A stretch of DNA of 37,859 nucleotides from a virus (lineage: Duplodnaviria > Heunggongvirae > Uroviricota > Caudoviricetes). Shown here piece after piece: positions 1,777 through 19,103 of this stretch. The notes under the pieces were generated by a model. It was not told the DNA's origin. It saw nothing but the letters and a program-made list of their open reading frames with translations, and searched no databases. Location of the stretch: the IMG/VR virus record IMGVR_UViG_2541047757_000015; one strand, written 5' to 3'. Position numbers and translations under genes: made by a program. Within the stretch, counting starts at the first letter, position 1, and each line of letters starts with the position of its first letter.

Positions 1777-3372
1777 TTATGGCTGAGACTCTGGTTTAGC
1801 AATCTCGTTTATAAATTTCTTAGCTACAACAGTCTCATACTTTCTATAATCATCAAGATATTGAACATCTATATGATTTTTGTAGCGAGCATTAAATTTA
1901 TTTGCATCCCCTGTTTTATCATCTTTACGTTCATCCGTTGGTCTGAAAAATTTATGGTAGCGGCGGGGTGATACCCCCTCAAAATCACAAAATATTACTT
2001 TGGAAGATTCTTCGTTCTTTGTTATTGCATCATTATGCAGATCAAGAGCAAGGCTTTTATCAAATGGCTCTATATATACTACTTTTTTTATTCCAGATGC
2101 GACAATATGCCTTGCACAGTTGTGGCAGGGATAGGTTGTCGTAAAAAGAATTTTATCTTTAGTATCGCCGTTTTGTTTTCTAGCCATTGATGTAATGACG
2201 TCCATTTCAGCATGAATTGATCTGGAGTACTCCATTACACTTGATATTTTGCTGTCTTTGTAAATGCCTTCTGCAATATTATCTAATTTGTTTAGAAGTC
2301 GTGTTATATTAATATCGGCAACAGTTTGTCCTGCGGAAATACCTAATACACTTCTTACTTCGGTTGATAATATGCTTTTTATACGGTCTTTAATTTTTTG
2401 CTTGTTTGCATCATTATAACACTTACCACTTTTGTGAACGCATCGATGATCGTTATCAAAATCATCACTGCTATACAACCCGCCACCAGCTTTAGGTACG
2501 TCGTTCTTACCCACGGCAAGCAAATTCCCTTCATCATCAAACAGTGCAGCCCCTACTTGACGTGATAAACAAGCTGATTGTAATGATGTTGAAAAGGCAG
2601 CATACATACCTTTCTCGTTAAAAGTTGGTGTTAAACCATTTTTGCCATGAATAAGACCGAAAAACCGATCAATCTTCTTCTTTAATTCACTTTTTTGGCT
2701 GAAGTTATTTTTAATAAAAAAATCTGAATCAAGAATGGTTTCCCCGGTTCTTTGTCCATACGGATCAGAGGATTTATTATCAATATTAATAATTAAATGA
2801 AGGTCGTCCTTTGTCGATTCGTCAGCAATGAGATTCGTAATTCGGTAATCTAAATCGCGCAAAACTCCTAACAAATAGAAATTATGCTGATATATAACTC
2901 TGAATAACTCTATTTCTTCCGGCCTTTTGAATTGATCAATGATGAAGACAGTACCTTTATATTCATCATTATTATAATCAATATTCTTTTTCGCTGCTGC
3001 GATTGCTGCAATAGCAGCTTCTGCAAGCAACTCATTTTTTTCGTAATGTTTACGAAGTTTATTGGCAATATCCTGGAGTTTTAAATGTCTATTAACTTGT
3101 GTGCTTTCGGATACCTTCAGTGCTGCTGGCTCAAAATATAATGGGTCTTCCATAAGCGCACTTATGCGGATGTGTACAACATTATACCCCCATTCTTTGG
3201 ATATCTCTTCGATAATTTTGTTTATCGTTTTCATTCCACATCCAACATATCCACATAATCCAAGATAAATATCTTTTGATTGTCGTGAATTCACAATCTC
3301 AAGTGATGATGCCGATGTTGAGCCTTTTTTTTCATTCAGCTTTTGTGGAGTTTTTTTTGCTGCTTCAGCCAT
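1777..3372 (-). CDS. Two-domain protein: N-terminal P-loop/kinase-like region plus C-terminal cytidine/dCMP deaminase domain; AvcD/DCD-like candidate anti-phage dCTP deaminase
   Basis: 531-aa ORF, ATG start. C-terminal zinc-binding deaminase motifs HAEMDVI and PCHNCARHI; N-terminal glycine-rich GYVGCGMKT; markedly AT-rich compared with neighbours; inserted between int and xis. Confidence 0.75.
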   Translation of the reverse strand: MAEAAKKTPQKLNEKKGSTSASSLEIVNSRQSKDIYLGLCGYVGCGMKTINKIIEEISKEWGYNVVHIRISALMEDPLYFEPAALKVSESTQVNRHLKLQDIANKLRKHYEKNELLAEAAIAAIAAAKKNIDYNNDEYKGTVFIIDQFKRPEEIELFRVIYQHNFYLLGVLRDLDYRITNLIADESTKDDLHLIINIDNKSSDPYGQRTGETILDSDFFIKNNFSQKSELKKKIDRFFGLIHGKNGLTPTFNEKGMYAAFSTSLQSACLSRQVGAALFDDEGNLLAVGKNDVPKAGGGLYSSDDFDNDHRCVHKSGKCYNDANKQKIKDRIKSILSTEVRSVLGISAGQTVADINITRLLNKLDNIAEGIYKDSKISSVMEYSRSIHAEMDVITSMARKQNGDTKDKILFTTTYPCHNCARHIVASGIKKVVYIEPFDKSLALDLHNDAITKNEESSKVIFCDFEGVSPRRYHKFFRPTDERKDDKTGDANKFNARYKNHIDVQYLDDYRKYETVVAKKFINEIAKPESQP

Positions 3373-4503: not shown

Positions 4504-4866
4504 CTATTTCACCTTGATCTCAACATTTCGCAGCCGTAGCTCCACTGGCAGGTCTGACTTTCCGGTTAAAGCTAATGCGAGATTTTCTAGAGTAATGAGA
4601 GCTGTTATTGTTTTCCCCATCCAGGCGTTATCACCAACACGCTCAAGATGCGGAGGGTCGAATACAACCACCGAAAAAGATGCGTCTGCAAATGGTAATG
4701 CACGAGAATCAGCTATCAGGTCAGGACTGATAATCAGGCGTTGCCCATCGCACAATGTATGCTCTTCCTTTCTGATATCGCTGAATATCGCCCGTTCGTC
4801 ATTTGTATCGAACCAGAACATGCGACTGCCACAGCACATGTCGAGGATTGCTGCATGTCCAGTCAC
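4504..4866 (-). CDS. Small protein (120 aa) carrying SAM-methyltransferase-like motifs I and IV only
   Basis: GTG start overlapping the upstream stop (GTGA); motifs AILDMCCGSRMF (FxGxG-like) and VVFDPPH (DPPY-like); too short for a complete DNA methyltransferase. Confidence 0.5.
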   Translation of the reverse strand: MTGHAAILDMCCGSRMFWFDTNDERAIFSDIRKEEHTLCDGQRLIISPDLIADSRALPFADASFSVVVFDPPHLERVGDNAWMGKTITALITLENLALALTGKSDLPVELRLRNVEIKVK

Positions 4867-5213
4867 TGGTTGCCCCCTTTGCGAAGCCGTTCCGCCCATT
4901 CTTCAAGGGATTTCTCCGCATATTCACCAGACAGGCCATCAATCGGATGCGATTCATTAGCTAACTCTTCTTTCGCTGACAGAATCATGCGTGTAACGTC
5001 GAAAACTTCAGTCAAAGGCTTATTGATAAATCCGTGATTGAAAGCAGAAGCAAGACGGCTTGCGGTATAGTTAATACCCTCGTTGCGAGCCTCAGCACGT
5101 ACTTCATCGAATTTACGCACCAGATACTCAGCATTTGTTTCATTCACTTTCAGATCTCGCGGTACACATTTCCCGCGAAGAAAACCTTCCATTTCGAAAA
5201 CATTTATGCGCAT
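4863..5213 (-). CDS. Hypothetical prophage protein
   Basis: 116-aa ORF with protein-like composition, in the same leftward gene string; start codon uncertain. Confidence 0.45.
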   Translation of the reverse strand: MRINVFEMEGFLRGKCVPRDLKVNETNAEYLVRKFDEVRAEARNEGINYTASRLASAFNHGFINKPLTEVFDVTRMILSAKEELANESHPIDGLSGEYAEKSLEEWAERLRKGGNQ

Positions 5214-5867: not shown

Positions 5868-6692
5868 TCAGGCGGTGAAAGTACCAATAAAGGTTTCTAC
5901 TTTGCTGTCTTTGAATTTCTCAACAAGCAGATCACGAAATTCGTTAGCCATTTCTTCCTGGACTGCTTCCAACTGAATAATGCGCAGAACCAGTACAGGA
6001 CGATCGCCAGTGATAATGCTGAGGCGTAATTTAAACGGACGTTCTTTCAGACTTTCAAACGGAATGCATTTAAATTCAAATGCCACTGGCATAATATCTT
6101 TGGTCTTCGCTTCGACAGACTCCATCAGGGAGCGTTTTCCGCTGAAGTCATTATCTTCAAAATCAGCGGTCTGGTTTGCTTCAATCGTGATTTTACGGAC
6201 AGCCGCAGCCGCTTTTGTTGCCTGAATAGCGTCACCATTAGCATCAAAGCCTACAAGGTAGTCGGCCCAGTCTTCAATCCATTCTGCCAGTGACTTCTGG
6301 GAGTTACGCTCGCCGTTAACAGACAACAGAGCAGAGAACGGTGCTGTCTTTTTCAGTTTGAGAGTGGCAGTGTTATCTGCGTGACCTGGTTCATCAATAG
6401 TACCCAGGTTAAGCACACTGACGGCACGCATATTATCAGCATCGATAAAGCAGCGGGTGCCTTCATCTGCAAGATCTTTAGAATAACGGGTAAAGTCATC
6501 GATGCTGGCAGTGGAAAGCGCACCACGGAAACGGAAGCGATTTAAATTAAATTTTTCCAGATCATGAATGCGGAAATTCTCAGGCAATGCCACAGCATCG
6601 GCACCAATCTTACTGATAATTTCATTAACACCCTGAGCAGAAATAAGGGCATGGATTTGATTAATTGCGGTTGCGTCTAAGTTCTGAGACAT
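5868..6692 (-). CDS. yfdQ: YfdQ-like prophage protein (DUF2303 family)
   Basis: 274-aa ORF, ATG with GAGGA ribosome-binding site; length and position next to the HD protein match the CPS-53 yfdQ-yfdR arrangement as I recall it. Confidence 0.65.
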
Positions 6693-6757
6693 AATAAGTC
6701 CTCACTATATAAAGATATTCAGTGATGAGATAAATAATCAGTTTATTAAGAACGATA

Positions 6758-7120
6758 TTAATGACCTGCTGCGCGTAGTTTTCCGTCAGGCTCACCGGCA
6801 AGAGTCAGTAATTGTCCCTGGTCTTCCTGCAGAATAGTCAGGCGACCACCGCGATTGACATACATCGGCGTTTCGGTGGTGTCTTCTTCGGAAATTTTCC
6901 CGCGGTTAGTTGGGCGAACATATGAGAGTTTGTGTTTGATTTTCACACGGTTCTCATCAAACGGTTCGATTTCCAGATTGAGTGAGACCTTCCCTTTGGT
7001 TTTCGTGTTCATCACACCGGAAGCGACTTCACTGAGAACTGCGCCGATTTTGGTTTCAAATACGCCGCCGTCCAGCTCCCCGATAAATGCCTGCACATCA
7101 GTACTGCGTTCGCTAGCCAT
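6758..7120 (-). CDS. yfdP: YfdP-like prophage protein, first gene of the leftward early operon
   Basis: Internal ATG (MASERS...) preceded by GAGGAG gives 120 aa; lies directly downstream, on the leftward transcript, of the structured GC-rich leader. Confidence 0.55.
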   Translation of the reverse strand: MASERSTDVQAFIGELDGGVFETKIGAVLSEVASGVMNTKTKGKVSLNLEIEPFDENRVKIKHKLSYVRPTNRGKISEEDTTETPMYVNRGGRLTILQEDQGQLLTLAGEPDGKLRAAGH

Positions 7121-7139
7121 TTTGCTGCTCCTCATCATA

Positions 7140-7560
7140 TCGACCCTGCAAGGTCGGTTGGTTTCTCCACAAAACAGAGAAGAACACCTGGGTGGCAGCC
7201 GCCCGGATGGATTGGGTTATGAGCCCGTCGTCCGGTGATGCTCTTCTCTGTTTTGTAAAAAGAGCGGTGCCAGCCGGAAGCAAGTGTACAAACTGGTACC
7301 GCCAAAGCAGTGGCTGTTGTGGTGCCGGGTGCCTCCCGGTGCCTGGCGAAGGTTGCACACCAGGCGGGTGGGTATCCACAGAAGGTCGACTGTCAGCCTC
7401 AACCTTAACCCGCGTGCGCTGAGCCGCATTCACCACAACGCTAAGGATTCTCTCTGGTTGAAAATACTTAGCTGTTATGTGCCTGCTTTTAGCCACATCA
7501 GGCGAGGTGGACCTGGTTATTCCCCAACAACAAGGATTCGGTTAATCTTGATACCCCCAA
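7140..7560 (-). promoter_or_regulatory. GC-rich non-coding leader with a boxA-like motif and a 15-bp-stem hairpin; candidate nutL/put-like antitermination element or structured RNA
   Basis: Perfect 15-nt inverted repeat ACAAAACAGAGAAGA / TCTTCTCTGTTTTGT enclosing ~50 nt; on the minus strand GCTCTTTTTA (boxA-like) lies just 5' of the hairpin; ORFs here are Pro/Arg-rich and not protein-like. Confidence 0.3.
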
Positions 7561-7580
7561 TAACATGGTGATTATTTAAG

Positions 7581-8084
7581 ATGGACAAATTTGATAGAAG
7601 TGCACAAAGGCAGTTGTTACAAATACTGTATGATGCTCATCCTTATGAAATTTCTGATGATGCGTTGCAGTCTGTTCGTGACGCATTTGGAGATGATAAT
7701 GTCCTAATTTCGAACTTAATTTATCTCGAAGAACATGGCTTGATTAAGAATGCTCTTGATTATTACTTGGATGGCATAAATATAAATATTCCTGAATTAA
7801 GAATTACTAAAGATGGAATTGATTTCATTCGTGATGATGGAGGTCTTAAAGCTATTCTTGGGATTATGACAATAAGATTGCATGATGAGACTCTCTGTGA
7901 ACTTGAACGTATCATCAATAGTTCTACTTCTGCCACGACTGAAGATAAGAAGAAATTACTCTCTCAGCTTCGAACGCTTCCTGCCGACGCCATAAAACAG
8001 CTGACGATTCGATTACTTGGTCAGGGGCTTGACCATCTGCCGGACGTATTTCACGTAATTCAAAAAGCCCTCCATTCTCTGTAA
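7581..8084 (+). CDS. Hypothetical AT-rich accessory protein, possibly winged-helix-like at the N-terminus
   Basis: 167-aa ORF, ATG start, opposite orientation to flanking phage genes; TTGATA -35-like hexamer upstream placing a possible start near the ATG; own terminator downstream. Confidence 0.55.
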   Translation: MDKFDRSAQRQLLQILYDAHPYEISDDALQSVRDAFGDDNVLISNLIYLEEHGLIKNALDYYLDGININIPELRITKDGIDFIRDDGGLKAILGIMTIRLHDETLCELERIINSSTSATTEDKKKLLSQLRTLPADAIKQLTIRLLGQGLDHLPDVFHVIQKALHSL

Positions 8085-8262
8085 ATTCTGATTCTGGTCG
8101 GATTAGACAGAATCGTCCCCATCCGACCTGCTTACTAAGTAGAATCCAGAATTCGTCTTGTTGGTTGGTGCTGATAAAAAATCCATTAGGATGAACGTAA
8201 GCACAGAATATGACCATAGAACCCTCTTTTGTTACGGGGATACTAAGATTGTTAAAGAGCTA

Positions 8263-8286
8263 AGCGTCCTGTAGGGCGCTTTTTTG
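8263..8286 (+). terminator. Rho-independent terminator for the 7581..8084 gene
   Basis: Stem AGCGTCC / GGGCGCT with loop TGTA followed by TTTTTTG. Confidence 0.5.
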
Positions 8287-8370
8287 TTGCTAACGAATCA
8301 TCCGGTCATTCATACGCCACCGGCGGCTACTTCGTGGGCGTCCTGCCTGTCCGTGATAGCTTACATTATG

Positions 8371-8422
8371 TTGCTACTTAAAGTAGCAAAAATCAACAAC
8401 AAAAAGTAGATATTTGTTGTTG
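8371..8422. promoter_or_regulatory. 19-bp perfect palindrome plus adjacent 10-bp-stem hairpin; candidate left operator (O_L-like) for the CI repressor
   Basis: TTGCTACTT-A-AAGTAGCAA palindrome; adjacent CAACAACAAA ... TTTGTTGTTG inverted repeat; AAGTAG core is shared with the direct repeats at the cI start. Confidence 0.4.
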
Positions 8423-8607
8423 TCTATGATTTTTCTATAATTAATTGAAAGTTAAATGTTTTTGCTGATTTACTATGCTGTAAACTGAAAATATCGCACG
8501 AAGTTGGAGTAGGTATTGAGCATAGTGAATTATGAGGAGGGAGTTTTTTATGAGATTAATCAGGGAGAAAGAAGAGTAAAGCCCGGTTATGCGGCCGGGC
8601 ACATGCA

Positions 8608-9684
8608 TTACTTTGTAAGTTCTAGAACTCGTTGAGCCAGCCCTTTAAATTGTTCGTTAAAGGCGTCTCTGCTTGATTTCATTGTATTTAAGGCATGCCC
8701 AAATTGCCCTGAATCGCGAATTTGCTGATCACTGATGGAGAAAACAGGTGTCGCTAGTTGTTGGCTTATTGCGATTAATGAGTTGAAATCGGAAATATGC
8801 GCAAGATCATAGGCTGATAAATCTCCACTGACTGTTGTTTTGTTAATTGCATGTTGCACTTTATCTCGTGGAATTATGCAGGTAATTTTTTCTAGATTTG
8901 GCACTAAGATCGAATCAACAGCATCACGGATAGCTGCCATCCATTTTTCGAAAGATTTTACAGGTGCTCCTTTACGCGGCCTGTATCTCTGCTGAATCAT
9001 ACCTAGAAACTGCGGTGCATTTTTAATTGATTGTGAAGAGTTACCATCATTATTTTCTTTAAATAATGCTAATTCTTTGTGCCAGCGAGGTATATTTTTT
9101 GAGAGAGAGCGAATTGCTTGCCAGCAAAAAAAGTCTGGAGCTACAGGTACGATAAAATAGTCACTTGACATGAGAACTACTTCATTTAAACCTCCAACAT
9201 TAGGGCTGAGATCATAAAGAATGTAATCAATATTATTCTTCATGGCGATTAGCTGTAATATTTTTGGCAGGTTCCCTGGTATATTTCTTGTAGCAGGAAT
9301 ACCAGCAGCAATTTTTAGAGAAACACTTATCTGTGAATCTAAGTCCGAAACATCTAAATGTCCGGGAAGAAGCAGAAGGTTTTCATGCAGTGTAGGGTGT
9401 AATTTTCCCGTTTCTTTTTCAAGGTATGCTTCAGGTTGTCCGCCATTAATCAAATATTCTACAATAGGTCCAAGAGTTAAGTTATCTCTGCTAGAATAAA
9501 AAGAATCTAAACCCTCATCAATCTTTTCATAGCCAAGAACCATTCCTGTTAGATTACATTGCGAATCAAGGTCAACCATCAATACTTTCTTGCCTTCATC
9601 CGCAAGTGCCCATCCAAGATTGAAGGTTGTTGTGGTTTTACTTACCCCACCTTTATGATTAAAAAAACAAATTGATTTTGTCAT
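8608..9684 (-). CDS. ParA/MinD-superfamily ATPase with a long C-terminal extension; orphan, no ParB seen
   Basis: 358-aa ORF; deviant Walker A NHKGGVSKTTT at the N-terminus, A' motif VLMVDLDSQCN, Walker B-like ILYDLSP; directly downstream of cI on the same strand; AT-rich. Confidence 0.8.
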   Translation of the reverse strand: MTKSICFFNHKGGVSKTTTTFNLGWALADEGKKVLMVDLDSQCNLTGMVLGYEKIDEGLDSFYSSRDNLTLGPIVEYLINGGQPEAYLEKETGKLHPTLHENLLLLPGHLDVSDLDSQISVSLKIAAGIPATRNIPGNLPKILQLIAMKNNIDYILYDLSPNVGGLNEVVLMSSDYFIVPVAPDFFCWQAIRSLSKNIPRWHKELALFKENNDGNSSQSIKNAPQFLGMIQQRYRPRKGAPVKSFEKWMAAIRDAVDSILVPNLEKITCIIPRDKVQHAINKTTVSGDLSAYDLAHISDFNSLIAISQQLATPVFSISDQQIRDSGQFGHALNTMKSSRDAFNEQFKGLAQRVLELTK

Positions 9685-9854
9685 ATTTCTCTATCCTTTC
9701 GACCCCCAGCATATTGTAATTTACGCTGGGTGATTATTTTATATTGTTAATGATAATGTTTAATAAAAATAAGAGAGTAAAACAACTATTAGTAATAGCA
9801 CTTGCTTGATAAATATTATTTTTTCACCTTTAGTTCTATAGTCTAAACGAAGAA

Positions 9855-10616
9855 CTAAAGCCGGTTGTATTTAATTGATTCGTGTATCAATGCTTTGCCC
9901 ATAACATAAAGTTGATCTTGGGACTTCTCATCAATGTACCATTTCTCATAGGCTGGATTATCCGAAAGAACGGCGAGTTTGTTGCCTTGCATTTGTAGAC
10001 GTTTAACGTGGAACGTCTTACCATAAACGAAAGAGTAAACACCATCAGTTTGGAAGTTGCGAACAGAAATGTCGACAAACAGTCGATCTCCGGAAACTAG
10101 AGTAGGGGACATGCTGTCGCCATTTACAGTCATAACTTTAATATCATCTTGAGAACGATTACCGAAAAGAGAACGGGCATGCTCTGTTGTGAACTCAATG
10201 GCGTAGAGCACATCAACATAGTCTGAAAGCATATAGGTTCCAGGTCCTGCGCTAACGCTAAGATCCAAAACTTCTATCCTGTATACATCGGGTTTTGTTG
10301 GATTGGGGATGCTTGCCATTTCCTTACATCCTTCTCTCTCGCCAACACCATATTCTAAATATGAAGCTGATACCCCCAGAGCCAATGCAAGTTTATTCAT
10401 GACAGAGGCACGAGGCTTCGCAGCGCCGATTGTGTATCGCCGCGCCATTTCATATGTAACGCCCACAAGACTTTTGAGTTGGGTGACAGAAATTCCCTTG
10501 TTTGTCATTAGCTCGTTTAGTCTCTTGGCGAAATCTGGATACTTCTGTTCTTCTACCATAGGTAGAAGGTTACTCGCATCACATACGCTAGTCATTTCTA
10601 TTTTAAGTAGTTGCAT
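9855..10616 (-). CDS. CI-like phage repressor (N-terminal HTH plus C-terminal S24 LexA-like peptidase domain)
   Basis: HTH region GISVTQLKSLVGVTYEMARRY; Ala-Gly cleavage site (SVSAGPG); S24 motifs GDSMSPT and HVKRL; divergent from the cro-like gene. Confidence 0.85.
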   Translation of the reverse strand: MQLLKIEMTSVCDASNLLPMVEEQKYPDFAKRLNELMTNKGISVTQLKSLVGVTYEMARRYTIGAAKPRASVMNKLALALGVSASYLEYGVGEREGCKEMASIPNPTKPDVYRIEVLDLSVSAGPGTYMLSDYVDVLYAIEFTTEHARSLFGNRSQDDIKVMTVNGDSMSPTLVSGDRLFVDISVRNFQTDGVYSFVYGKTFHVKRLQMQGNKLAVLSDNPAYEKWYIDEKSQDQLYVMGKALIHESIKYNRL

Positions 10617-10633
10617 TCTGCTATTTTAAGTAG
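10598..10633. promoter_or_regulatory. Candidate right operator region: two direct repeats CTATTTTAAGTAG spanning the cI start and the cI-cro intergenic region
   Basis: Seen directly; shares the AAGTAG core with the palindrome at 8371..8389; cI-cro intergenic is only ~49 bp, so the cI transcript may be leaderless. Confidence 0.45.
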
Positions 10634-10665
10634 CATCATCCCTCTGAATTTCAGAGGAGAAAGGT

Positions 10666-10929
10666 ATGTCATCTCAAAACTACACAGAGAAAGCAGTAAA
10701 AGCTGCGGGAAAATCTTTATCTGAAGTAGCCCGTCACTTTGGTTTTAAGTCCACTCAATCCGTCGCTAATTGGGTAATTAACAATCAAGTCCCGTCAGAA
10801 CGGGTTTTACAACTTTGTGAGTTGGGAAACTGGTCCGTGACCCCTCATGAACTGCGTCCTGATATTTACCCCAATCCAAATGATGGATTACCTGAGTGCT
10901 ATTCAAAAGTTAGCGGTTCAGCTGCGTAA
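10666..10929 (+). CDS. Cro-like HTH regulator
   Basis: 87-aa ORF, ATG with GAGGAG ribosome-binding site; HTH LSEVARHFGFKSTQSVANW; divergent from cI. Confidence 0.75.
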   Translation: MSSQNYTEKAVKAAGKSLSEVARHFGFKSTQSVANWVINNQVPSERVLQLCELGNWSVTPHELRPDIYPNPNDGLPECYSKVSGSAA

Positions 10930-10957
10930 ACGTAACCACAGAAACGAGGAGTTAACC

Positions 10958-11509
10958 GTGGGTAAGCATCACTGGAAAATAGAAAAACAGCCTGAGTGGT
11001 ACGTGAAAGCTGTCAGAAAAACTATCGCAGCGTTGCCGGGGGGTTACGCTGAAGCTGCTGACTGGCTGGACGTAACAGAGAACGCATTATTTAACCGCCT
11101 TCGTGCCGATGGCGATCAGATTTTCCCGCTGGGATGGGCAATGGTTTTACAGCGTGCTGGTGGCACTCACTTCATTGCTGATGCTGTGGCGCAGTCTGCA
11201 AATGGCGTATTTGTGTCTCTTCCTGACGTCGAGGATGTGGACAACGCCGATATTAACCAGCGTCTGCTGGAAGTCATTGAACAGATCGGCAGTTATTCAA
11301 AACAGATTCGTTCAGCAATCGAAGACGGTGTAGTGGAACCGCATGAGAAGACAGCAATTAACGACGAGCTGTATCTCTCAATTTCGAAGCTGCAGGAGCA
11401 TGCAGCACTGGTCTACAAAATCTTTTGCATTTCAGAAAGTAATGACGCCCGCGAGTGTGCAGCTCCGGGCGCCGTGGCGTGTCGTGACTGTGGAGAAACT
11501 AACGCATGA
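10958..11509 (+). CDS. CII-like phage regulatory protein (possibly Phage_CP76 family)
   Basis: GTG start with GAGGAG ribosome-binding site just after cro; ~183 aa; position between cro and the replication genes; family assignment is from recollection only. Confidence 0.5.
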
Positions 11510-11844
11510 ACAGTTTAACAACACACTACCGTCGCTCGCAACTGATTGCGCTTCCTGTACCGGGTGGAAAAGCGAAGGTGGAGTATTGCTATGCAGTGAA
11601 TGTACCAGGTGATAGGGAAATTGTAACCCACAGCTTTGCAGAGTGGGCTGTGGGTGATTTCAACCGGCAGAAGGAGACAGTCCTTTGCGACAAGTTAACC
11701 GCTGGTTCAAAGATCACTACGGAGTGCCCGTCAGAGTCATTCGTTGGGAGCCGGAAACACAACGGGTTATCTACCTCCGTGAAGGCTATGAACATGAATG
11801 CTTCAGTCCGCTCGAACAGTTTCGTCGTAAATTCAGGGAAATAG
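11506..11844 (+). CDS. Hypothetical ORF with ATGA-coupled start; C-terminal third is low-complexity and overlaps the next ORF in another frame
   Basis: ATG overlaps the stop of the CII-like gene; first ~60 codons are protein-like, the remainder is Ser-rich. Confidence 0.3.
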
Positions 11845-11897
11845 AGGTCGGTCATGAGCCTGTTAATGACATCCCAGCCCATTGTGATAAATCGTGA
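11685..11897 (+). CDS. Hypothetical small protein (70 aa), alternative frame to the 11506 ORF
   Basis: Protein-like composition throughout, but the ORF-track start is TTG; could be the true downstream part of a frameshifted gene. Confidence 0.3.
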
Positions 11898-12846
11898 TCT
11901 TGCATGCCGTATTGGTCTGAATGAGGCAATTGTGTTGCAGCAGCTTCATTACTGGCTGAATGAAACGAATTCAGGCACTGAGCATGGCGGAATTCGCTGG
12001 GTTTATAACACGACAGAACAGTGGCTGGAGCAGTTTCCGTTCTGGTCAGAGTCCACTCTGAAACGCACATTTGCAAGCCTGAAATCACTTGGGGTTTTGC
12101 GTCGCGAGCAACTCAATAAATCGAAGCGTGACATGACCAACTTCTACACGATCAACTATGAAAGTGAGCTTTTAGAAGAGGTCAAAGTGAACGAATCCAT
12201 CAGGTCAAAATGCACTTCTCCATCGGGTCAAAGTGACCTGATGGATGAGCGCAAAATGACACGATCCATTGGTTCAAAACGACACGCTGTCATCGGGTCA
12301 AAATGGCCCAATGATCTTACAGAGAATACAACAGAGATTACTACAGAGAATAAAACCTCTTCTCGTCCGGACGCTTCGCAACCGGACACGCAGATGGCTG
12401 AACAGGATTTTTTAACTCGCCATCCTGATGCGGTTGTATTCAGCCCTAAAAAGCGCCAGTGGGGAACGCAGGATGATTTGACCTGCGCACAGTGGCTCTG
12501 GAAAAAAATCATCGCTCTGTACGAGCAGGCCGCCGAATGTGACGGCGAAGTGGTACGTCCTAAAGAACCGAACTGGACAGCCTGGGCAAACGAAATTCGC
12601 CTGATGTGTGTACAGGATGGGCGTACTCACAAACAAATCTGCGAGATGTACAGCCGCGTCAGCCGCGATCCGTTCTGGTGCCGTAACGTGCTCAGCCCGT
12701 CGAAGCTGCGGGAAAAATGGGATGAGCTTTCCCTGCGCTTATCGCCGTCCGTCAGCACGTACACAGAAAAACGCGAAGATCCGTACTTCAAAGCCAGTTA
12801 CGACAACGTGGACTACAGCCAGATCCCGGCAGGATTCAGGGGGTGA
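11854..12846 (+). CDS. Phage replication initiation protein (lambda O-like role) with origin iterons inside the gene
   Basis: 330-aa ORF, ATG with AGAGG ribosome-binding site; N-terminal HTH-type domain; internal iterons and AT-rich tract as in lambda ori. Confidence 0.75.
   Translation: MSLLMTSQPIVINRDLACRIGLNEAIVLQQLHYWLNETNSGTEHGGIRWVYNTTEQWLEQFPFWSESTLKRTFASLKSLGVLRREQLNKSKRDMTNFYTINYESELLEEVKVNESIRSKCTSPSGQSDLMDERKMTRSIGSKRHAVIGSKWPNDLTENTTEITTENKTSSRPDASQPDTQMAEQDFLTRHPDAVVFSPKKRQWGTQDDLTCAQWLWKKIIALYEQAAECDGEVVRPKEPNWTAWANEIRLMCVQDGRTHKQICEMYSRVSRDPFWCRNVLSPSKLREKWDELSLRLSPSVSTYTEKREDPYFKASYDNVDYSQIPAGFRG
12175..12360. repeat. Replication origin candidate: five ~22-24-bp-spaced iterons (consensus ..CATCrGGTCAAArTG..) followed by an A-rich ACAGAGA-repeat tract
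   Basis: Seen directly: AGGTCAAAGTGA, AGGTCAAAATGC, GGGTCAAAGTGA, TGGTTCAAAACGA, GGGTCAAAATGG, then ACAGAGAATACAACAGAGATTACTACAGAGAATAAAA. Confidence 0.55.
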
Positions 12847-18197: not shown

Positions 18198-19103
18198 CTA
18201 TATTTCCAGACACCTGTTATCACTTAACCCATTACTGGCCTGCTGCCGCAGATATTCCCGTGGCGAGCGATAACCCAGTGCACTATGCGGATGCCATTCG
18301 TTATAATGCTCGAACGCCTCTGCAAGGTTCTTTGCTGCCGTTAACCCGTCTGGTTTAGGCATGATACTGATGTAGTCACGCTTTATCGTTTTCACGAAGC
18401 TCTCTGCTATGCCGTTACTCTCCGGACTCCGCACCGCCGTGTTCTTCGGTTCAAGCCCCAACATCCGGGCAAACTGCCGTGTTTCATTAGCCCGGTAGCA
18501 TGAACCATTATCCGTCAGCCACTCTACTGGAGACGCCGGAAGCTCGTTGCCGAAGCGGCGTTCCACCGCTCCCAGCATGACGTCCTGTACTGTTTCACTG
18601 TCGAAGCCGCCCGTAGTGACTGCCCAGTGCAGTGCCTCACGGTCACAGCAGTCCAGCGCGAACGTGACTCGCAGTTTTTCTCCGTTATCACAGCGGAACT
18701 CGAACCCGTCAGAGCACCATCGTTGATTGCTTTCTTTCACGGCCACTTTGCCAGTATGTGCCCGTTTCGATGGCGGTACAGCGGTTTTTCGCTCAAGCAA
18801 CAGCGCATTCTGGCGCATGATCCGGTAAACACGTTTGGCATTGATCGCAGGCATACCATCAAGTTCGGCCTGTCTGCGAAGCAGCGCCCATACCCGACGA
18901 TAACCATACGTGGGCAGCTCTCCGATAACATGGTGTATACGGAGAAGCACATCCGTATCATCTGAGTGACGGCTGCGGCGACCATCTTTCCAGTCATCGG
19001 TTCGTCTGAGAATTACGTGCAACTGCGCACGCGACACCCGGAGACAACGGCTGACTAAGCTTACTCCCCATCCCCGGGCAATAAGGGCGCGTGCGCTATC
19101 CAC
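18198..19103 (-). CDS. insD: IS2 transposase OrfB (InsD), DDE integrase-core domain
   Basis: 301-aa ORF recognised as IS2 InsD. Confidence 0.9.

Follow-up and report, generated by a model that had tools for sequence, protein, structure and literature searches.

A solo ParA-like ATPase gene in the cI immunity cassette of an Escherichia coli lambdoid prophage as a candidate single-gene anti-phage system

The slot downstream of the phage repressor gene cI is a known hotspot for defence cargo, with rexAB and BstA as examples (PMC8585504). GiPD474 (STM474_RS13505) is a single gene in the immunity region of Gifsy-1 in S. Typhimurium 4/74, and its product was described as a ParA-like ATPase whose C-terminal part was labelled 'unknown' (Bosma et al. 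2025, PMC12724215). When gipd474 was deleted, S. Typhimurium 4/74 again supported plating of FO1, and FO1 formed fewer plaques on Salmonella that carried GiPD474 on a plasmid. In tests in S. LT2 and E. coli K-12 the plasmid-borne gene lowered the EOP of T4 and Alf5 by about 5 logs, and T7, SP6 and others were unaffected (PMC12724215). A reduction of phage plating by expression of the gene on its own has been shown for GiPD474 only (PMC12724215).

ParA-like ATPases have also been placed in conflict systems by prediction. Dyads of ParA/Soj and HEPN proteins were predicted to act as toxin-antitoxin-like systems in which the ATPase is the antitoxin and not the effector (Anantharaman et al. 2013, PMC3710099), a prediction that counts against a defensive reading of such an ATPase. 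Our search of the literature on ParA-like defence, AAA_31, RiboL-PSP, and HEPN combined with ParA found only GiPD474 and this 2013 HEPN survey. What is already known is the GiPD474 type of defence (2025) and the earlier cI-N hotspot, and the family described here is without a reported function.

The parA-like gene and the immunity cassette

The DNA analysed (the window, 37,859 nucleotides) is an E. coli lambdoid prophage. The parA-like gene (8608..9684, minus strand) starts with ATG, carries an AAGGA Shine-Dalgarno sequence 9 nt 5' of this start (9698-9694), and encodes a solo ParA/MinD-class ATPase of 358 aa (RefSeq WP_000167381.1, 'ParA family protein'). A preliminary description made from the sequence had called a ParA/MinD ORF of this size here, and the ORF call, Pfam (AAA_31, E 2e-29; CbiA, E 5e-14) and PHROG (PHROG 164 'ParA-like partition protein', E 9e-52) all agreed with it. 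The GC content of the gene was low, as is typical of morons. Membership of the ParA/MinD class of SIMIBI ATPases was evident from a deviant Walker A motif with its signature lysine at the N-terminal side (N9-H-K11-G-G-V-S-K16-T-T). In an alignment of 32 close homologues K11, G12, G13, K16, T17 and T18 were invariant, as were D38 and D40 of Walker A' (switch I), D158 of Walker B, the arginines of a QQRYRPR motif and the segment DFNSLIAISQ, and most of these residues predominated in the wider family too. NHKGGVSKTT, QQRYRPR and DFNSLIAISQ were taken as the signature motifs of the family. Pfam and PHROG returned ParA-type families only for this protein, with no homology to RexA or RexB. Using PADLOC (2023) only the P-loop was matched, residues 3-40 (38 residues) against the 438-position PDC-M28B profile (E 6e-9), and the candidate system PDC-M28 was ruled out as the profile match was not full-length.

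The repressor gene upstream encodes a LexA-like cI-type protein with HTH_3 and Peptidase_S24 domains by Pfam (9855..10559, minus strand; the RefSeq start at 10559 gives 234 aa, and the ORF from the first ATG reaches 10616). The parA-like gene lies 170 bp downstream of cI on the same strand, the position given in the preliminary description. The spacer between the two (9685..9854, minus strand, 170 bp) is AT-rich with a GC content of 0.27, and holds a weak promoter-like site (9762..9733) whose match was no better than chance. A terminator scan detected no terminator-like site between cI and parA. An intrinsic terminator-like hairpin (8581..8600, minus strand) was found by the scan and in the sequence beginning 8 nt past the parA stop, GCCCGG-N8-CCGGGC followed by TTTACTCTTC, with six GC pairs and a T-rich tail, and it is the probable end of a cI-parA transcript. 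Divergent from cI are a cro-like gene with a YdaS-type HTH (10666..10929, plus strand; Pfam PF15943 and annotation) and a CII-like gene (Pfam). An Rfam scan gave no match in the immunity region.

Operator-like repeats bracket cI and parA. The palindrome CTAYTTWAAGTAG occurred at three places only in the 37.9-kb window (8374-8386, 10598-10610 and 10621-10633) as compared to 0.15 expected, a count reached in 0 of 100 shuffles. Two of the copies lie between cI and cro and the third is 222 bp past the parA stop. The OR-like operator region (10594..10639) contains two CTATTTTAAGTAG copies, 10598-10610 and 10621-10633, and a pRM-like promoter (10629..10600, minus strand) overlaps both. The OL-like region (8368..8413) contains the perfect palindrome TGCTACTTAAAGTAGCA (8372-8388) and a degenerate second copy, and the OL-like and OR-like regions form an inverted repeat of each other over 46 nt with 78% complementarity. 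These cI operators were the only significant repeats. A consensus scan found no pL promoter at the OL-like site, and the 'OL' label therefore follows from the operator repeats only. With operators on both sides, a strong terminator after parA and no terminator between the two genes, parA is part of the immunity cassette and takes the place that rexAB has in lambda. Both the operator bracket and the rexAB-equivalent slot proposed in the preliminary description are upheld by this arrangement, and we infer that parA is likely co-transcribed with cI from the pRM-like promoter.

Lambda rexAB and BTP1 bstA occupy this same slot between cI and the pL/N region and, like the window gene, are likely transcribed in the lysogen with the repressor. 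They have no relationship to the window protein in sequence or fold. The window gene encodes one cytoplasmic P-loop ATPase, whereas RexAB is a two-protein system of a sensor and a membrane component and BstA is a KilA-N protein.

This prophage has a second defence cargo, of a known type. A 531-aa ORF (1777-3372, minus strand) with a C-terminal cytidine-deaminase domain matched the PADLOC dCTP-deaminase model over nearly its full length (E 1e-164), adjoins the integrase gene (386-1624) and has a low GC content of 0.35. The otherwise related prophage L001 lacks it. A 131-aa ORF (4504-4899, minus strand) matched PADLOC models for type II and orphan methyltransferases (E 6e-32, about 85 residues) and could be an early gene for a truncated or small methyltransferase-like protein. 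Two cspA-type thermoregulator RNA elements (Rfam RF01766; 17340-17779 and 22131-22547, plus strand; 160 and 105 bits) imply cold-shock-protein genes in the late region. An IS3-family transposase gene (rve, rve_3, HTH_21; 18198-19103, minus strand) is inserted in the prophage.

Search for a partner and fold of the protein

Partners of the ATPase were sought in the window and in related loci. Pfam on the 16 window ORFs and phmmer on the six-frame translation detected no ParB-like gene, and no second ParA is encoded in the window. The parS consensus was matched three times with three mismatches each as compared to 1.3 matches expected, which is not above chance, and positions 6500-12000 contained no tandem or iteron-like repeat array. 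A profile built from 26 HEPN partners of related ATPases (described below) found no HEPN gene in the window, the annotated E. coli flanks that were inspected showed none, and the 54 loci of the solo clade had no conserved neighbour. The adjacent centromere-binding partner, centromere repeats and low-copy autonomous replicon that make up a ParABS system were each missing from the setting of the window gene. This bears out the preliminary description, which had seen no ParB or partition locus and had suggested the search for parS-like repeats. It had also doubted a maintenance role, and the doubt was well placed as 110 of 110 places of the gene in E. coli were chromosomal and in integrated prophages. 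A maintenance role is unlikely.

Neighbouring ORFs were rejected as partners. A 55-aa ORF (8441..8608) whose ATG overlaps the parA stop (TAATG) lies under the terminator hairpin, has no RefSeq annotation and no PADLOC match, and has no conserved downstream family in the solo clade. An ORF at 7924..8217 was considered as an N-like antiterminator and rejected as it overlaps a well-supported plus-strand gene and has no family matches. The 167-aa gene at 7581..8084 (plus strand; phrog_3983, E 3e-59) is found without parA in SfII, SfIV, SfV and other phages, and other genes take its place beside the same cI-parA cassette. This gene converges on parA, runs antisense to the early-left operon, has its own terminator (8262-8281), and looks like an independent moron. 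It is common to SfII, SfIV, SfV (orf33), ST64B and several coliphages, and other small genes replace it in other cI-parA prophages.

The preliminary description had assigned the protein a C-terminal extension of about 150 aa, and this part of it did not hold. The AlphaFold2 model (32-sequence alignment) was one compact domain with a pLDDT of 84 and a pTM of 0.88, and Foldseek aligned it to Soj over 340-360 columns, giving a ParA/Soj three-dimensional fold. The Pfam AAA_31 match ends at residue 204 and the ParA fold goes on to the C-terminus. A discrete C-terminal domain was ruled out by the single compact fold and the end-to-end alignments to Soj and ParA. Because the ParA fold reaches the C-terminus within this compact model, the roughly 100 extra residues are modelled as insertions spread through the fold together with a long terminal helix (330-357). 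The DFNSLIAISQ segment (299-308) comes right after the last core strand (E293-299), and its register makes it the putative counterpart of the 'PRN..LSEAPS' segment of Soj. Soj, ParA, SopA and ParF (types Ia and Ib) share with the window protein the deviant Walker A with its signature lysine, Walker A', Walker B and the overall fold. They differ in that the window protein has about 100 more residues, as insertions, and in that its gene is without ParB or centromere and is not plasmid-borne. DIP2308 of Corynebacterium diphtheriae (PDB 3pg5), a ParA-like protein from structural genomics, was about 25% identical to the window protein and was aligned by the family profile over residues 3-322 (E 1e-27).

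Exchange with GiPD474 and distribution of the family

The GiPD474 sequence was recovered from IMG/VR by a search with the published primers (PMC12724215). The recovered ORF encodes 361 aa and agrees with the published length of 1086 bp and with GGVGKT at residues 29-34. The Salmonella homologue P0010 was ruled out as GiPD474 as the primers do not match those loci. The window gene matched the setting of GiPD474, a ParA/MinD-like ATPase of about 360 aa encoded by a single AT-rich cargo gene, alone and directly downstream of a prophage repressor. The two proteins gave a collinear full-length alignment, with 22% identity over 352 aa by BLASTP (E 1e-13) and, by hhalign, a 99% probability (E 4e-18, 308 columns), a probability of limited weight since it is high for any two proteins of the ParA superfamily. 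The AF2 models of both were single expanded ParA folds with the same order of core elements and different decorations. GiPD474 has a Cys at the second position where the window protein keeps the canonical D38-x-D40, and its signature motifs are not those of the window family. In a tree the window protein fell in a separate clade and GiPD474 on a long outgroup branch. Homologues of GiPD474 were defined by at least 70% identity and at least 70% coverage (PMC12724215), and with 22% identity the window protein falls outside this definition. At so low an identity the two proteins are, judged by sequence, members of different families. The phenotype of GiPD474 has been measured (PMC12724215), whereas the window protein is known here from sequence and model.

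The two families occupy one and the same slot in sister prophages. A further 95 E. coli genomes had a cI region 90-95% identical (about 92%) to that of the window, and two of these prophages were inspected. In the first the slot holds a 361-aa protein with 93% aa identity to GiPD474, an E. coli orthologue whose gene is present in 71 genomes. In the second, from E. coli GPEC1240, the slot holds an unrelated two-gene cassette. The two proteins encoded by the cassette (L184:2458-3449; 120 aa and 210 aa) gave no informative matches to Pfam, and the cassette may represent a further uncharacterised cargo of this hotspot. On the Salmonella Gifsy backbone, repressors that are 94% identical are followed by either GiPD474 or a 73%-identical relative of the window protein. 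With this swap seen on two independent backbones, the window family and a validated defence gene can replace each other as cargo, and this is the strongest argument that the two serve the same purpose. The two families also co-occur. In a mini-island (L020:10001-13015) a gene for a Pol-beta NTase/HEPN fusion is flanked by a GiPD474-like gene on one side and, on the other, by a member of the window family in convergent orientation. The mini-island belongs to an uncultured bacterium and lies near chromosomal origin genes (mnmE, gidB, parAB), with a PIN-domain gene nearby.

The parA gene was present at 99% identity or more in 109 of 5426 complete E. coli genomes (about 2%), including the ExPEC strain IHE3034. 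The 110 places in these 109 genomes were all chromosomal and in integrase-bearing prophages at tRNA genes. An identical 3.3-kb region was found in 62 complete genomes, within prophages with the integrase beside tRNA genes. The gene was always accompanied by the same cI allele, with 109 genomes carrying each at 99% identity or more, and the left flank and integration site varied among the E. coli prophages with cI-parA. In strain 550 an IS3 element interrupts the immunity region, leaving 98% of parA matched and the region in two pieces.

Relatives were detected far beyond E. coli. Among 8000 candidates examined 5269 proteins matched at E<=1e-5, many of them 60-65% identical and spread across Proteobacteria; there were 132 clusters of relatives (50% identity) at E<=1e-30, and at least 539 species-representative loci from many phyla encode a relative. 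Relatives were also encoded on 148 IMG/VR contigs, and among 57 viral contigs at least 20 had a gene of HTH or S24 type directly upstream. The P22-like phages SE1 and ST160 carry a relative between cI and gene 24, and in Salmonella, Pseudomonas and Acinetobacter prophages relatives follow Gifsy-type, S24-type or Arc-type repressors, with the Pseudomonas relative after an S24 repressor and those of Acinetobacter and Chromobacterium next to Arc/Ant modules. A Pf1-like prophage has a relative near its attachment site. In a P4-like island of Megalodesulfovibrio gigas a relative lies beside HicAB, DarTG and type I R-M genes, and in some species AbiL, MADS, Mza or Rmr genes are within 2.5 kb of a relative. 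Many solo relatives lie between housekeeping genes without a recognisable defence island, which counts against a role in defence.

Neighbour clustering of 80 species-representative loci of the window family revealed a downstream gene for a RiboL-PSP-HEPN protein (Pfam PF18735, Rx4H motif) in 26 of them. In most of the 26 loci the HEPN gene starts 0-11 nt after the ATPase gene, indicating translational coupling. The HEPN-coupled loci formed one clade, from Cyanobacteria, Dehalococcoidia, Acidobacteriota and others, and the window protein grouped with SE1 gp23 in a separate solo clade. The ATPase and the signature motifs are common to both clades, and the ATPases of the HEPN dyads are 37-41% identical to the window protein over the full length with the same invariant motifs. 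The ATPases of the ParA/Soj-HEPN dyads found here thus belong to the same sequence family as the window protein, and the window gene differs in having no HEPN partner and in lying in the solo clade. The dyad partners found here are RiboL-PSP-HEPN proteins by Pfam, in contrast to the MAE_18760 HEPN family named in the earlier survey (PMC3710099). Four distant relatives of about 640 aa (P0301, P0304, P0317 and P0338) combine a ParA-like module 35-40% identical to the window family with a CE-clan cysteine peptidase domain, Ulp1/OtDUB-like, on its C-terminal side, and end in low-complexity tails. This peptidase domain matched OtDUB (PDB 8efx) with an E of 1e-10, and it resembles those of the secreted effectors of intracellular bacteria. 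The HEPN linkage and the CE-clan fusions suggest that the ATPase module recurs as a nucleotide-dependent partner of varied effectors.

A candidate defence ATPase and its alternatives

We consider the window gene to be, with moderate confidence, a lysogen-expressed, stand-alone, single-gene anti-phage ATPase carried as cargo of the immunity cassette. A one-gene ParA-like defence is the most likely reading because the equivalent slot of sister prophages is occupied by a gene with proven anti-phage activity. The preliminary description had suggested a lysogen function such as superinfection exclusion. Its lysogen-defence part has circumstantial support from the orphan status, the slot and the exchange with GiPD474; a block to DNA entry was not indicated, and by analogy with GiPD474 a post-adsorption defence appears more likely than strict superinfection exclusion. 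From ParA biochemistry, the protein would act as a ParA/MinD-class ATPase forming an ATP-sandwich dimer. Presumably through the conserved arginine cluster of QQRYRPR, at the position of the DNA-binding Arg189 of Soj, the ATP-bound dimer would bind DNA without sequence specificity, whether that of the nucleoid or that of a phage entering the cell or replicating, and this binding would block a post-adsorption step of heterologous phages. That the sister clade couples the same ATPase module to a HEPN RNase effector suggests that the module may serve as a nucleotide-dependent sensor or switch in conflict systems.

The HEPN linkage can also be read differently. The window gene might be an orphan regulator, antitoxin or counter-defence protein derived from the ATPase half of a ParA-HEPN dyad, the prophage copy neutralising or modulating HEPN-type or other Abi modules of the host or of competing elements. 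The translational coupling of the sister clade to RiboL-PSP-HEPN genes, the proposal that the ParA/Soj-like partner is an antitoxin (Anantharaman et al. 2013, PMC3710099) and the family member beside the NTase-HEPN gene in L020 are consistent with this, but neither the window nor the inspected annotated E. coli flanks hold a HEPN partner, the solo clade is large and well conserved, and the slot is one expressed in the lysogen and shared by exchange with a gene proven to defend by itself. We regard such an origin as unlikely. The strict inheritance of parA with one cI allele (109 genomes each) could instead point to a modulator that acts on host physiology or on the life cycle of the prophage itself, through a RexA-like bias of the genetic switch, a Soj-like action on DnaA and replication initiation, or a MinD/MipZ-like action on division. 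The ParA/MinD family includes the regulators Soj, MipZ and FleN, and RexA, from the same slot, is a DNA-binding protein with a second role in the lysis-lysogeny bias (PMC11077077). Close relatives, however, accompany unrelated repressors of Gifsy, Arc and S24 type and are also found in islands and single-gene islets that are not part of prophages, which argues against a function tied to one switch and makes a modulator improbable.

The fold and motifs of ParA/Soj, the partition ATPases that are the closest functional structures, and the database labels (partition protein in PHROG, ParA family in RefSeq) would fit a true partition or positioning ATPase for the excised or replicating phage genome or other cargo, acting with an unrecognised adaptor and centromere. 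Against this stand the searches above, with no ParB-like ORF, parS matches at three as compared to 1.3 expected and no tandem repeats, as well as the lack of a conserved neighbour in 54 solo loci. The gene can also be swapped with unrelated cargo, and its E. coli copies were in integrated chromosomal prophages in 110 of 110 cases with 0 on a plasmid. A positioning role is in our view very unlikely. The antitoxin, modulator and positioning explanations are all less well supported than a stand-alone defence.

More speculatively, the family defined by NHKGGVSKTT, QQRYRPR and DFNSLIAISQ could be an unrecognised antiviral module that spans phyla, in which a partition-type ATPase has taken on the role of a nucleotide-dependent phage sensor or of an effector that coats DNA. 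It would act alone in proteobacterial prophages and as the switch of a HEPN RNase in Cyanobacteria, Chloroflexota and Acidobacteriota, and together with GiPD474 it would form a 'defensive ParA' superfamily that excludes phage DNA by a partition-like mechanism. We regard this wider proposal as tentative.

If the window gene is a defence gene, ParA-like single-gene defence would extend from the GiPD474 family of Enterobacteriaceae to a second, far larger and more ancient family, and the defence provided by this family would be linked to the HEPN-coupled systems. The well-understood biochemistry of ParA would then give a way into its mechanism. The gene is carried by about 2% of complete E. coli genomes, the ExPEC strain IHE3034 among them, and so could have an effect on how susceptible clinical strains are to phage therapy.
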